NCBI RefSeq assembly: GCF_041912635.1
Contig: NZ_JAYRMO010000005.1
Coordinates: 33,472-97,471, forward strand
Direction: 5' to 3'
DNA length: 64,000 nucleotides
From: Inhella sp.
GTDB taxonomy: Bacteria; Pseudomonadota; Gammaproteobacteria; Burkholderiales; Burkholderiaceae_C
In this document: one piece after another, positions 18,001 to 30,000 of the stretch
Position numbering within the stretch: the first letter of the stretch is position 1
Layout: each line of letters starts with the position of its first letter
Program-made: the position numbers

Positions 18001-21000
18001 CCGCTCACCGCCTGGTTCAGCGGGGCCCCCAGCTCCTTCCAGTTCGGGAACAGCTCGGTGATGGCGCGCGGGTCCATCACGGCGCCGCTGAGGATGTGCG
18101 CACCGGCTTCGGAGCCCTTTTCGAGTACCACCACCGAGATTTCGGGGTTGATCTGCTTGAGGCGGATGGCCGTGGCCAAGCCGGCCGGGCCGCCGCCGAC
18201 GATCACGACGTCGTACTCCATCGATTCACGGGGACCGAATTGGGCAAGGATCTCGTCGTTGGTCATGGCGATGCGGGGGGGTTCTCAGAGGCGGCGGATT
18301 CTAGGGAGCCCAAGAATAAAACGAACGGTCGTGCTTTTTTCTTAGAGGCAGAGCCCCAGAAGCACTGCGGGAAAGCCCCGTGCTAACGTGCCCGCACGCC
18401 CTCTAGCAGGGCCTTCCACAGGACAAGAACCATGAGCTATTCGATCGATCTGTCGGGCCGCGTGGCCCTTGTCACCGGCGCTTCCAGCGGTCTGGGCGCG
18501 CAGTTCGCCCGCACGCTGGCTAAGGCGGGCGCCGCCGTGGTGCTGGCCGGTCGCCGGGTGGAGCGTCTCAAGAGCCTGCGCGCCGAGATCGAGGCCGAGG
18601 GCGGCGACGCCCATGTGGTGACGCTGGACGTGACCGATCTGACCTCCATCAAGGCCGCCGTGGCCCATGCCGAGACCGAGATGGGCACGCTCGACATCCT
18701 GGTCAACAACTCCGGTGTCTCCACCAGCCAGCGCATCGTCGATGTGAGCGAGCAGGACTGGGACTATGTGATGAACACCAATCTGCGCGGCGCCTTTTTC
18801 GTCGCCCAAGAGGTGGCCAAGCGCATGCTGGCGCGCGCCAAGGGTGCGGCGCCCGGCAGCTTCACCGGCGGGCGCATCGTCAACATTGCTTCCATGGCGG
18901 GCCTGCGGGTGCTCAGCCAGATCGGCATCTACGCCATGAGCAAGGCCGGCGTGGTGCACATGACGCGCGCGATGGCGCTGGAGTTCGGCAAGTACGGCAT
19001 CAATGTGAACGCCATCTGCCCGGGTTACATCGACACCGAGATGAACCACCACCACTGGGAAACCGCGCATGGCAAGCAGCTGATCGACATGCTGCCGCGC
19101 AAGCGCGTGGGCCAGCCGCAGGATCTGGACACGACCCTGCTGATGCTGTGTGCCAATGAGAGCCGCTTCATCAATGGCGCCATCGTGCAGGCGGACGACG
19201 GATTCGGTGTGTGAGCGTGCAAGTTCGTGACCTGACGCCTATCGAGGCGCGCGTGCTGGCCGTGCTGGTGGAAAAACAGCACACCGTGCCCGACAGCTAC
19301 CCGCTCTCGCTCAACACCCTGACCCTGGGCTGCAACCAGAAAACCGCGCGCGAACCGGTGATGAACCTCGGCGAGCCCGAGGTGCTGGAGGCGCTCAACA
19401 GCTTGAAGGACCTGAGCCTGGTCTACGAGGTCAGCGGCAGCCGGGTGACGCGCTTCGAGCACAACCTCAAGCGCGTCTACGGCGTGCCCGGCCAGGCCGA
19501 GGCCCTGCTGACCGTGCTGATGCTGCGCGGCCCGCAAACGGCGGCCGAGTTGCGTCTGAATGCCGAGCGCCTGCACCGCTTTGCCGACATCTCTTCGGTC
19601 GAAGGCTTTCTGGAGGAACTGGCCGAGCGCGAGCCGCCGCTGGCCATCAAGCTTCCGCGTGCCCCGGGCGCCCGTGAGGCGCGCTGGGCCCAGTTGCTGT
19701 GCGGGCCGGTGGAGCTGCCGGCCGCCAGTGCCTACGTGGCGCCCGCCGCGGCGCGCGATGCCGAACTGGAGGCCCTGCGCGCCGATGTGGATCAACTCAA
19801 GCGGCAGGTGGCGCGGCTGATGAGCGAGCTGGGGCTGCAGGAATGAGCGCGCGCGCCTGGACGGCCGAATGCGTGAAGCGGATCGAGGCCGATTTCCAGC
19901 GCAGCGCCGACACCCATCTGATTCCTCTCGAGCTGCCCGCTTTCCCGGGTATCGACTTCTATCTGAAGGACGAGTCCATCCACCCCAGCGGCAGCCTCAA
20001 GCACCGCCTGGCGCGCTCGCTCTTCCTGTACGCGCTGTGCAATGGCTGGCTGCGCGAGGGAGCGCCGGTGGTGGAAAGCTCCAGTGGCTCCACGGCGGTC
20101 AGCGAAGCCTACTTCGCCCGCCTGCTCGGCCTGCCCTTCATCGCCGTGATGCCCGCCACCGTCAGCGAGGCCAAGCGCCGTGCCATCGAGTTCCAGGGCG
20201 GGCGCTGCCATCTGGTAACCGACCCGACCCAGGTCTATGCCGAGGCGGCCCGCCTGGCGCTGGAGGGGGGCGGCCACTACATGGACCAGTTCACCTACGC
20301 CGAGCGCGCCACCGACTGGCGCGGCAACAACAACATCGCCGAATCCATCTTCAAACAGATGGAGCGCGAGCGGCACCCGGTGCCGAGCTGGCTGGTCTGC
20401 AGTGCCGGCACCGGCGGCACACTGGCCACGCTGGGCCGCTTCGTGCGCTACGGGCGCCATGCCACGCGGGTGTGTGGGGCAGATGCCGAGCGCTCGGTGT
20501 TCTTCGAGCACTACCAATGCCGCGACGCCGGGCTGACGATGGACTGCGGCTCGCGCATCGAGGGCATCGGCCGCCCGCGCGTCGAGGCCAGCTTCCTGCC
20601 CGATGTGATGGACGCGATGGTCAAGCTGCCGGATGTCTGGTCGGTGGCGGCCATGCGTGTGCTGAGCGACTGGCTGGGCCGGCCGGTCGGGCCTTCCACC
20701 GGCACCAATCTTCTGGCCGCGCTGGCCTGCGCGCGCAGCATGCTGGGCCAGCGCGGCTCCATCGTGACCCTGCTGTGTGACAGCGGCGAACGCTACCGCG
20801 ACAGTTACTTCGACGCTGGCTGGCGCGCCAGCGCTGGCCTGGCCTGCGAGGCCGAAACGGTGGCCCTGGGCGAATGGGTGGCGGGCGGCAGCCTGCCGCC
20901 GGAGCTGGCGCAGTCCTGGCAGTGCGCCGGGGCGCTGGCCTAGGGAGGCCGCGTGCGGCGCCGCAGCCTGCTGGGTAGTGCCCCGCTGCTGGCGCTGGAT

Positions 21001-27000: not shown

Positions 27001-30000
27001 ACCTGGCCGCCGAGGGCCGCACCATGATCGTGGTGACGCACGAGATGGGCTTTGCCCGTGAGGTCAGCAACCACACCCTGTTCCTGCACCAGGGCAAGGT
27101 GATCGAGGAAGGTCACCCCAAGGATATCCTCGTTAACCCGAAGAGCGAGCGCCTGAAGGCCTTCCTCAGCGGCGGCCTGAAGTAGGCGCTACTTGCCGCC
27201 CAGCACGCGCGCCGGCAGGAAGAGCAGGGCGCGCAGGGCGGCGAACAGGGCTTCCACGCTCAGGCCGATCAGCCGGAAGGGCAGGCTGATCAGCCAGAGG
27301 ATGGGCCAGAGCACCAGCGCCAGCAGGGCCAGCGGCCAGCAGAGCACGAAGAGCAGCAGCCAGAGCAGGAACTTGAGCATGGCCGCAGCCTACGCCGGGG
27401 TGGCGGGTGTGCGGGAGGTCATGCAGGGCTGAGTTGGGCCTGCAGGGCGCGCCGAGCGGCCTGGGCCCACGGGCTGGGCTGCTGCGGCGGCATGGGCAGC
27501 CGGCCGGCCGCAGGCGCCGGCAGCGCCCACTCGGCGCAGGCATGCACGAGCTTGATCACATGCTCGTCGTCCTGGGCGCCGGCGGCTTCGAAGTAGAGCG
27601 GCCAATCGGTCGACTCAGCAGACTCGGATTCGGGCGCGGCCGGCTCACCCGTCCAGCGGCTGGCCAGCAGCGCGGCGGCGGCATCGATGGCAAAGCGCCG
27701 CACCACCTCCTTCGGGCGGGTCACATAGGGCAGCAGAACGCGCAGGGCGCGGCTGCCTGTCACCCCATGCAGCAGGGTGAAGTTCCCACTGGCTGCATAG
27801 GCGCGGGCCAGCCACTCGGCCAGTTGGCGCAGGCCATCGGCCGGGGCCTGCAGCTGCAGGCGGGCGGCAACCTGGGCAAAGCCTGGTGTGGCGGCCCAGG
27901 CCTGCATGCGCTCGTCGATCAGCCCGGCGGGCGGCGCGGCGGGGGCGGGCAGGGCGCGGATGGCAGCGAGCCAATCGTCCAGCGCCAGATCGGGCGTTGG
28001 CAGCGGCTGGCGCCACAAGGGCGCGTGCTGGCTGGCCCACAGGCCCAGGGCGAGTGCGAGCTCGCCGCTGTGGCCGCTCTGCCAGGCGTGCGCGGTGCGG
28101 ATCAGCAGATGAAAGGCCATCGAGGCGCCGCCGTCCAGCAGTTCGGGCAGCGTGGCCTGCAGCAGGGTCTCGGCGGGCTGCCGGTCCAGTTCGGCATCGA
28201 AATGCGCCACCAGCAGGGGCAGGGCCTCGGCGCGGCCGCGCAGCGCGCGCCAATCGGGCAGCAGGGCCGGCGCGGGCCAGGGCAGCACCAGGGGTTCGAG
28301 TTCACGAACCTGGGCTTCGCTGAAGGCCTGCAGGCGTTCGCTCGAAGCCCCCAAGGCCCACAGCGCATGCTGGGCCATCGGCAGGTGCGAGACCAGGCGA
28401 CCCTGGTAGAGCGGATGCCAGGCGGCGCGGCCGGCGCTGAGCAGGGCATGCAGGGGGTGCTGGGCGTTGAGCGACATGGTGCTTGCAGGTGGAGGGTGAG
28501 GTCACGCACTCTGCAAGCTCAAGTGAGCTTCAAGTCAAGTGCAAAATGCCAGCGCAGCCCCACAAGGAGCGCGACATGCAAGACGGTGAGGGCGCCAGCT
28601 GGCTGGCGATTGGGGAAATGGCGCAGCGTGCCGGCCTGGCGGCCAGTGCCCTGCGCTACTACGAACAGCAAGGCCTGATTGCCGGCGGGCGCAGTGCCGG
28701 CGGGCGGCGCCAGTACCCGCGCCATGTGCTACGGCGCCTGGCCTTCATCCGTGCCGCGCAACTGATGGGGCTGACGCTGCCTGAGATCCGAGCCGCCCTG
28801 GCCAGCCTGCCCGATGAACGCACGCCCACCAAGGCCGACTGGGAAAAGCTTTCGCGCCAATGGCTGCCGCTCATCGAGGCGCGCATGGCCGAGCTGCAGC
28901 GCCTGCACGACAAGCTGACCGGCTGCATCGGCTGCGGCTGCCTGTCACTCAAGGCCTGCAAGCTCTATAACCCGGACGACCAGGCGGCGGCGAAGGGGGC
29001 GGGGGCGCGCTACTTGGCAGGGGATTTGCCGGGGCTGTGAACGGAAGCGAATGTGGCCGAGTGCTTCGCTGTGGGTATCGCTGTTGGCATCAAACTGCCG
29101 GACATGGGGCCGATGCGCGCTGCATTCGGCCGCAGGCGCGCTGAACCGCAGCCCTGCTGCAGGTGAAATCGATGGCTCCGCAGGCACCAGGCGTCAAGGT
29201 ACGGATCCGATTTCTGGGCCATGGCGGCCGTCCGGTGACCGAGCGGCAATGGCTGAAAGCCCTGCTGCCGGCCGCCTGGGACGAGCCGGCCCGCATGCAG
29301 ATCCGAGCCTTGGCCGCGCAGCACCTGGCCCTGTTCAACGCCGATCGGGTGTTTGTGTACCCGATCGCGCTCGATCTGATCCGGACTCGGTTGCTGGACC
29401 TGGGCCTGGGCGGGCGCTTCCAACACTTCGCCTGGGAGCTGCCGGTCCAGGCGATCCCGCCACTGTGCGAGCACTGTCTGGCCTGCTGGCTCGGCAAAGC
29501 TCCGGAGCCGCCCGCCTGCTTCAGCCAGGGGTTGGCCCGGGTGTTTCGCTCCCCGCATTGCGGCAGCCTGATGCTGGACGACCCGCAGGCCGGCAAGGCG
29601 GGCCTGCGGCAGTTCATCAGCGTGCCGGAGTCTGCGCAGCGTTTCGGGCTGACCCCGGGAGCTGGGATGGGGCCCTAGTTCAAAGTCAGCGCGGGGGCGT
29701 AGCTGGCACCCTTGAGCATGGCCTCGCAGGCGAGCCGGGCGGTGCTGCCGATGCCGTAGCCGACCAGCAGCTGGGTGCCGGCATAGGCGCTCAGGTCGGT
29801 GTCCACCGGCACGACCGGGGCGCTCATGGTGGGGGACAGCGGCCCCAGGTAGGCGGCCGGCATGGCGGCGCAGCCGCTGAACAGGCTCCATTGCCCGCCC
29901 GACCAGGCCCAGATGTCGCTGCCCATTGCCGGGGGCAGCAGGGCGGCGACAAAGAAGCCACCCGTCAGGCCCACCACGGCCGGCGGCAGCGTGGCGGAAA

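Follow-up and report, generated by a model that had tools for sequence, protein, structure and literature searches.

A candidate cyanophycin-scavenging locus with two predicted exported cyanophycinases and interleaved orphan binding proteins in Inhella sp.

Introduction

Genes for a cyanophycinase and for the cyanophycin dipeptidase CphZ are clustered in 32 of 50 genomes, without the synthetase gene cphA1, an arrangement that has been read as serving cyanophycin degradation or scavenging (Sharon, McKay, Nguyen & Schmeing, PNAS 2023, PMC9974463). Such clusters are abundant in Burkholderiales (PMC9974463). Here we describe a locus of this kind in Inhella sp. (Burkholderiales, Sphaerotilaceae), at positions 20953-27185 of a 64,000-nucleotide stretch that we refer to as the window (assembly GCF_041912635.1, contig NZ_JAYRMO010000005.1, positions 33,472 to 97,471 of the forward strand). 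Cyanophycin scavenging is the best reading of this locus from its sequence. As in the published clusters, a cyanophycinase gene lies beside one for a CphZ-type M14 dipeptidase in a proteobacterium of the order Burkholderiales, with no synthetase nearby and a scavenging role proposed. Unlike them, the window encodes two paralogous cyanophycinases, both predicted to be exported, together with an AotP ATPase that is an orphan and two orphan genes, interleaved with the others, that resemble those of substrate-binding proteins (SBPs); the published survey gives counts of clusters, not this layout.

Two further systems bear comparison. Pseudomonas aeruginosa grows on β-Asp-Arg by means of AotO and the importer AotJQMP (PMC9974463). 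Its aotJQMOP-argR operon, in which AotO is the CphZ, shares with the window the CphZ-AotP gene order, a HisP-type ATPase and the dipeptidase residues. However, the window lacks the aotJ, aotQ, aotM and argR of that operon, and P. aeruginosa has no cyanophycinase where the window has two. The ‘cyanophycin utilization locus’ of Bacteroidetes (Ben Hania et al., 2017, as cited in PMC10206079), as far as it is described in the citing text, follows the same concept, in that a non-producer has a cyanophycinase together with a dipeptidase and a transporter, but it uses IadA instead of CphZ, belongs to another phylum and has its transporter in cis.

A first-pass annotation of the window had taken the layout to be previously undescribed. 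This holds for the interleaved SBPs only, since cyanophycinase and cphZ clusters without cphA1 were already reported in the 32 genomes cited above, and the window is a lineage-specific layout of that published kind. What sets it apart is that its depolymerase is duplicated, with export signals that differ between the copies, that its ATPase is an orphan, that receptor, permeases and regulator have been lost, and that an orphan SBP is embedded in it. The role of this last protein, SBP2, is the only candidate novelty.

Results

A compact, co-directional array of six genes

The locus consists of six open reading frames (ORFs) on one strand, in the order that had been annotated. Domain assignments were made by Pfam and NCBIfam searches.

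20953..21696, + strand: SBP1, SBP_bac_3 family (PF00497, 4e-19)
21735..23108, + strand: CphE1, predicted exported long-form cyanophycinase (S51); Peptidase_S51/cyanophycinase, TIGR02069 122.2 bits
23105..23881, + strand: SBP2, SBP_bac_3 family, 47% identical to SBP1
23971..25293, + strand: CphE2, predicted exported long-form cyanophycinase (S51); Peptidase_S51/cyanophycinase, TIGR02069 116.7 bits
25298..26407, + strand: predicted CphZ/AotO-type dipeptide hydrolase (M14, AstE/AspA fold); AstE_AspA catalytic domain, match to 8EIN
26421..27185, + strand: AotP/HisP-type ABC (ATP-binding cassette) ATPase; HisP equivalog 382 bits

SBP1 and CphE1 are 38 nt apart, CphE1 and SBP2 overlap by 4 nt, and gaps of 50, 4 and 13 nt precede CphE2, the M14 gene and the ATPase gene, respectively. 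The gap before CphE2, the largest, becomes 89 nt when CphE2 is counted from ATG 23971. The longest ORF of CphE2 opens at TTG 23932, while gene calls on a Logan contig carrying the same DNA at 100% identity (L001) use ATG 23971, the likely start. The locus as a whole is 91.5% identical in nucleotide sequence to that of Inhella proteolytica (GCA_016093275.1). GC content at third codon positions (GC3) is 0.84-0.92 in a genome of about 70% GC, and comparison with Inhella relatives gives dN/dS values of 0.04-0.21; the six ORFs are therefore real genes.

The array reaches beyond the six genes. A short-chain dehydrogenase (SDR), a DUF480 protein and a pyridoxal phosphate (PLP)-dependent enzyme (PALP) precede SBP1 on the same strand through overlapping or 9-nt junctions, and dN/dS indicates purifying selection on all nine genes. 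An Rfam scan of 16000-29500 gave no match.

Two long-form cyanophycinases with different export leaders

Both S51 proteins retain the Ser/His/Glu triad and the arginine-motif pocket that had been noted. In Synechocystis CphB, the reference, the triad is S132/H174/E201 and the pocket is formed by Q101, D172, Q173, R178, R180 and R183 (PMC3235067). The equivalent residues are S163/H210/E237 with Q129, D208, Q209, R214, R216 and R219 in CphE1, and S178/H225/E252 with Q144, D223, Q224, R229, R231 and R234 in CphE2 (numbered from 23971). The triad and all six CphB-defined pocket residues are invariant across 53 homologues. CphE1 matches cyanophycinases in the PDB with E values of 1e-13 to 6e-16 and is 77% identical to an Inhella gelatinilytica protein that NCBI names ‘cyanophycinase’. 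An AlphaFold model of CphE1 (predicted local distance difference test, pLDDT, 89.5) superposes on CphB structures with template modeling (TM) scores of 0.83-0.87 over its first ~290 residues.

The precursors of CphE1 and CphE2 are 457 and 440 residues long and 62% identical to each other. In CphE1 a Sec-type leader occupies residues ~1-23 and the catalytic domain residues ~30-290; a C-terminal domain specific to CphE (~291-427) follows, and a basic tail completes the chain. Export leaders had been claimed for both proteins, and inspection together with hydropathy bears this out: that of CphE1 is strongly hydrophobic and Sec-type, whereas CphE2 begins with a twin-arginine leader (MSLLSRRQLM..., motif SRRQLM) followed by a Ser/Thr/Ala-rich linker. 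The RR motif is kept in the CphE2 orthologues of L081, L083 and L003. Thus CphE1 is predicted to leave the cytoplasm via Sec and CphE2 probably via the twin-arginine translocation (Tat) pathway, and both are, by sequence, predicted exported CphE-type cyanophycinases.

Known counterparts are the extracellular CphE enzymes of Pseudomonas anguilliseptica BI and P. alcaligenes DIP1, with which we compared the window proteins by description. Shared features are the N-terminal leader, the Ser-His-Glu triad and the Gln/Asp/Arg/Arg/Arg pocket. Extracellular CphE is described as a 43-45 kDa protein with a C-terminal extension, which the window proteins (~410-460 residues) resemble, in contrast to CphB with ~270 residues (~27 kDa). 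The spacing from catalytic Ser to His differs, at 47 residues in the window proteins and 53 in Pseudomonas CphE, and the twin-arginine leader of CphE2 contrasts with the Sec leader of the Pseudomonas enzymes.

The C-terminal domain (residues 291-427 of CphE1, window 22605-23015) is conserved but belongs to no Pfam family. In a fold search with the CphE model only the catalytic domain aligned, leaving the C-terminal domain without a structural homologue in the PDB. Across a library of 1.8 billion proteins the domain matched 118 representative clusters, many of them fragments, and among full-length proteins it occurred only at the C-terminus of proteins of 400-480 residues; it is therefore specific to the long cyanophycinase form, and it may bind the polymer. 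Beyond it, a basic tail of about 30 residues, predicted to be helical (residues 428-457, window 23016-23108), is found in the CphE1 clade only, including the I. gelatinilytica protein P0002, and the end of its coding sequence overlaps the SBP2 start codon. Planctomycetota and the cyanobacterium [Phormidium] sp. LEGE 05292 also have long-form CphE homologues, at 38-43% identity (among L034, L038-L041, L048, L050, L053, L061, L064, L075 and L077).

In neighbor-joining (NJ) trees without bootstrap, CphE1 and CphE2 form separate sister clades, each with single-copy orthologues elsewhere, and the duplication is therefore old. Because SBP1 and SBP2 likewise fall into separate clades in such trees and are only 47% identical, a recent tandem duplication of an SBP-CphE unit was ruled out.

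A predicted CphZ/AotO-type dipeptidase

The M14 protein matches the crystal structure of CphZ from Acinetobacter baylyi (AbCphZ, 8EIN/8EIP) with an E value of 3.3e-65 over residues 11-360 of 369, at about 36% identity. For comparison, AbCphZ and P. aeruginosa AotO are 38% identical (PMC9974463). The published bioinformatic cut-off for CphZ asks for identity above 30% and coverage above 70% relative to AbCphZ (PMC9974463), both of which the M14 protein exceeds. Its only other PDB matches are 3FMC and 3LWU, both regarded as likely CphZs (PMC9974463), whereas no AstE structure in the PDB and no AstE model in NCBIfam was matched at E<=0.01. Grouping with AstE rather than AotO had been named in advance as the outcome that would speak against the annotation of this protein as AotO/CphZ-like; the result favors CphZ.

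This assignment extends to the active site, where 11 of 12 functional residues are identical to AbCphZ. Residue roles were taken from PMC9974463, and the alignment offset was validated by finding all twelve reference residues of the expected identity. The zinc ligands H38/E41/H167 and catalytic E240 align to H50/E53/H179 and E251 of AbCphZ. The clamp for the arginine carboxylate, R90/N100/R101, is identical to R102/N112/R113, and the acidic pocket for the guanidino or amino group of Arg or Lys, D210/E211, to D222/E223. Of the contacts to the Asp moiety, D169 equals AbCphZ D181, and AbCphZ K366 is conservatively replaced by R354. Neither this protein nor AotP has an N-terminal leader. On these grounds the M14 protein is predicted to be a cytoplasmic CphZ/AotO-type cyanophycin dipeptidase.

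An orphan ATPase of the AotP type

The annotation of the last gene as an arginine-type ABC ATPase is supported and can be narrowed. The protein scores 382 bits against the HisP equivalog, below the cut-off of 466, and is 71-77% identical to ATPases of aotJQM-cphZ-aotP operons and 88-98% identical to those of L002, L081, L083 and L087. By sequence we identify it as an orthologue of the AotP of aotJQM-cphZ-aotP operons. It is also the best-conserved gene of the locus (dN/dS 0.06-0.10); the I. gelatinilytica copy is 92.5% identical, with dS of about 1.1 and dN/dS of 0.066.

The absence of cphA was confirmed across the window, in which every ORF of at least 600 residues with coding-type composition has another assignment (IleRS, a tetratricopeptide repeat (TPR) protein, ComEC, two TonB receptors, TgpA and a histidine kinase).

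Remodeling of cphE loci among Burkholderiales

To place the locus we ran a CphE profile against 185,579 species genomes, obtained at least 583 confirmed matches and examined 79 loci. Beside cphE we found cphZ in 35/79, an orthologous TonB-dependent receptor in 30/79, aotJQM in 9/79, as part of a full aotJQM-cphZ-aotP set, and a second, tandem cphE in 8/79. None of the 79 contained an SBP or PLP enzyme of the window's families.

Several layouts recur. Aquabacterium, Ideonella and Methylibium have a TonB receptor on the minus strand followed by cphE-aotJ-aotQ-aotM-cphZ-aotP-AraC regulator; Roseateles and Niveibacterium have the minus-strand receptor followed by cphE-cphZ-regulator; and Oxalobacteraceae have a minus-strand cphZ followed by receptor-cphE. 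Within the Inhella group, I. gelatinilytica (L087) has PALP-cphE1-cphZ-aotP, metagenomic relatives (L090-L093) have PALP-cphE1-SBP2-cphE2-cphZ, and the window shares PALP-SBP1-cphE1-SBP2-cphE2-cphZ-aotP with I. proteolytica (L081) and L083. In L084 and a JGI contig (P0125), PALP-SBP1 is followed by one or two TonB receptors on the opposite strand and then cphE2-cphZ. The gene immediately upstream of the cyanophycin genes in Inhella relatives is always the PLP enzyme.

Aquabacterium humicola (L007) serves as an example for comparison. Its cphE, cphZ and aotP are orthologous to those of the window (54%, 48% and 77% identity) and stand in the same order. Unlike the window, it has a linked TonB receptor, aotJQM and a regulator, while the window adds a second cphE and two SBP-like genes and is fused behind an unrelated SDR-DUF480-PLP-enzyme operon.

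The cphE-adjacent TonB receptors are 41-69% identical to the L007 copy (4921-7683, minus strand), and of the 30 Burkholderiales loci with a receptor, 23 also contain cphZ. In receptor-bearing loci this suggests TonB-dependent uptake of cyanophycin products across the outer membrane. A single adjacency of a TonB transporter and a cyanophycinase was noted in 2012 in Citromicrobium (PMC3400609).

Paired cphE paralogues, in tandem or near each other and often with no adjacent cphZ, were also seen in Pelomonas/Roseateles (L023, L024, L026, L027, L029, L032), in Duganella (L072) and in L006. The window is therefore not alone in having a duplicated exported cyanophycinase.

Two orphan binding proteins

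SBP1 and SBP2 are distant from known transporter components. Their identity to AotJ is 24% for SBP1 and 31%, over part of the protein, for SBP2; they form a clade apart from AotJ; and they match NCBIfam transporter SBPs weakly, far below cut-offs. The family is small in a word-indexed search (34 and 9 matches), and in the PDB its closest match by sequence is the sensor domain of a histidine kinase (3H7M). An AlphaFold2 model of SBP1 (pLDDT 91) has a generic class-II amino-acid-SBP fold. A third, distant SBP-like sequence lies at 55846-56535 (plus strand), between MscS channel and GST genes, and is 27% identical to SBP1 by tblastn.

The leaders of SBP1 and SBP2 read RRxLL (twin-arginine-like) and RRSVL (window 20953-21030 and 23105-23190), and nearly all members of the family (P0121-P0158) have a weakly hydrophobic leader with an RRx(L/M)L motif. 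This suggests that the orphan SBP family is exported by Tat, if so an unusual route for periplasmic binding proteins. The ligand pocket was compared at positions that we take, with low certainty, to be those of LAO (D11, D161), mapped through AotJ. There the carboxylate-binding Arg is invariant, and the two acidic charge-binding residues are replaced by Asn, Ser or Thr in both clades. The SBP1 and SBP2 clades differ by Tyr vs Leu and Ser vs His.

SBP1 groups with PALP-linked family members, and its presence is independent of that of cphE. It is probably part of the neighboring PLP-enzyme operon, from which the locus most likely inherited it. In every case observed, SBP2 lies between cphE1 and cphE2 and its start codon overlaps the stop of cphE1 (ATGA); the CphE1-SBP2-CphE2 triplet with this 4-nt overlap is kept in the window, L081, L083 and L090-L093, with partial copies in L089 and L094. 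The triplet is retained while SBP2 diverges to 58% identity under a dN/dS of 0.09-0.21. SBP2 is a plausible candidate for an accessory periplasmic binding component of the cyanophycin module.

Weighing alternative explanations

Several observations weigh against cyanophycin scavenging as the function of the locus. The TIGR02069 scores of CphE1 and CphE2 fall just under the curated cut-off of 126.6, over model positions 2-221 of 250. The best PDB sequence match of the S51 proteins is deposited as ‘pseudo-CphB’ (7UQV), and the residue before the catalytic His is Gln, as in CphB, where CphE(al) has Thr. In the 64-kb window, searches found no type II secretion genes, no AraC-type regulator of the cphE-cphZ kind and no AotQ or AotM permease (tblastn with the L007 proteins gave nothing better than E 0.07). 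No promoter-like site was found in a scan of 18000-28600, where terminator-like sites are no commoner than in shuffled sequence. The S51 proteins might accordingly be pseudo-cyanophycinases, or periplasmic peptidases for another substrate, in a locus for general peptide or arginine scavenging, a view also favored by the consideration that periplasmic export alone would not reach insoluble granules. We nevertheless consider this very unlikely. The full triad and six-residue CphB pocket are invariant throughout the 53 family members; size, leader and C-terminal extension fit the description of the 43-45 kDa CphE; and the direct neighbor is CphZ, for which cyanophycin is the sole abundant source of substrate known. 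Still less credible is that AotP is a functionless, decaying remnant of an aotJQM deletion. Relatives do have a J-Q-M-Z-P order and no permeases stand beside the window gene, but the gene is intact and the best conserved of the locus, and the permease-less E-Z-P order recurs in L002; the relic was rejected on dN/dS.

How far the six genes suffice is a separate matter. The first-pass annotation had called the pathway complete, which we do not find. Besides the permeases and the regulator, the window contains no AotJ orthologue and no orthologue of the cphE-linked TonB receptor (its own two receptors, at 38-42 kb, are 27-34% identical over short segments), and SBP1 is tied to the PLP-enzyme gene; the pathway is therefore incomplete in cis. 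A self-contained pathway in which both SBPs serve as dipeptide receptors of an arginine-type ABC importer driven by the adjacent ATPase is accordingly doubtful. In its favor, both proteins are predicted to be exported, are under purifying selection and have an amino-acid-SBP fold with the carboxylate-clamping Arg invariant, and SBP2 is held between the cphE genes in several lineages. However, an ABC importer needs permeases, and neither SBP is orthologous to AotJ. SBP1 is absent from L087 and L090-L093, TonB receptor genes on the opposite strand separate it from cphE in L084 and the P0125 contig, other family members lie next to an AMP-binding enzyme, DUF2145 or a histidine phosphatase with no cphE nearby, and the two acidic ligand-charge residues, at what we presume to be the LAO positions, are uncharged in both clades. 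The opposite view, that both SBPs are bystanders from an unrelated orphan family, ancestrally linked to PLP or other cytoplasmic enzymes and interleaved as a by-product of rearrangement, draws on these varied contexts, on PALP-SBP1 coupling without an adjacent cphE and on the lack of such an SBP in all 79 CphE-family genome loci outside Inhella. We regard it as rather unlikely, for the conserved stop/start overlap of the triplet, maintained under purifying selection to 58% identity in SBP2, argues against it. We would raise only tentatively the idea that SBP2, and perhaps SBP1, acts as a receptor or accessory for cyanophycin dipeptides or short oligomers, forming a CphE-SBP-CphE capture module that replaces the TonB receptor and AotJ and feeds an importer powered in trans by AotP.

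Neighboring genes and other features of the window

Three genes precede SBP1 in the array.

18432..19214, + strand: SDR, supported by ORF and GC3; its syntenic counterpart in L081, L083 and L087 carries the annotation adh_short
19211..19846, + strand: DUF480 (YceH-like) protein, supported by its ORF, with a 4-nt overlap with the SDR stop; context gene
19843..20943, + strand: PLP-dependent enzyme (PALP) of the Cds1-like cysteine desulfhydrase/cysteine synthase family (PF00291 1e-46; NF052478 524 bits)

The SDR gene (dN/dS 0.02-0.08) opens the array behind a divergent intergenic region of 165 nt; it is probably a context gene outside cyanophycin use. The NF052478 score of the PLP enzyme lies below the cut-off of 600, and its stop is 9 nt ahead of SBP1.

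Elsewhere in the window, a gene for an M35 aspzincin (lysine-specific metallo-endopeptidase family) at 15406-16476 (minus strand), upstream of the array, is kept in I. proteolytica and I. gelatinilytica and fits the proteolytic way of life that these species names suggest. GC content falls to 0.63-0.66 at 8000-14000, compared with ~0.70 elsewhere; genes there include a 934-residue TPR protein (9819-12623, minus strand) and a PEP-CTERM protein (8801-9715, minus strand). The minus strand of 38097-45090 encodes two tandem TonB-dependent receptors (696 and 688 residues) that have no relation to the cphE-linked receptor, and after them a histidine kinase and a binding protein of the ABC_sub_bind type.

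Discussion

We think it likely that the locus is a chromosomal cyanophycin-scavenging module of Inhella sp. whose importer permeases are encoded elsewhere. In such a module CphE1 and CphE2 would be exported via Sec and Tat, for which their leaders are strong sequence evidence, and presumably reach the medium as Pseudomonas CphE does. They would release β-Asp-Arg and β-Asp-Lys from cyanophycin. The dipeptides would then enter the periplasm without the dedicated receptor that relatives possess, and a polar-amino-acid-type ABC importer energized by AotP, with permeases and possibly a binding protein encoded elsewhere, would take them up, by analogy with AotJQMP of P. aeruginosa. In the cytoplasm CphZ, for which the sequence evidence is again strong, would split them into Asp and Arg or Lys. 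Gene content, homology, the conserved catalytic and substrate residues, leaders, synteny and purifying selection are observed directly in this scheme, and we infer substrates, localization past the inner membrane, transport route and co-transcription. The window contains no permease, type II secretion gene or regulator, and we therefore assume export past the periplasm as well as uptake and induction.

The origin of the locus may be sought in the Burkholderiales arrangement TonB receptor / cphE-(aotJQM)-cphZ-(aotP)-AraC regulator, of which it would be a reduced and rearranged form. In Inhella this appears to have landed behind an SDR-DUF480-PLP-enzyme(-SBP) operon, with loss of receptor, aotJQM and regulator.

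These findings leave the known mechanism unchanged. What they contribute is a well-supported example for the recent view that many heterotrophs unable to make cyanophycin are equipped to eat it, here in a freshwater lineage of Sphaerotilaceae whose relatives Roseateles and Paucibacter occur in association with blooms of cyanobacteria. The comparative series traces the remodeling of such a locus: receptor, permeases and regulator are lost, the depolymerase is duplicated, and the locus becomes fused to a neighboring operon. The enzymes could be candidates for the production of cyanophycin dipeptides, and an orphan binding protein of the SBP2 type that may recognize β-Asp-Arg or β-Asp-Lys offers a testable lead.

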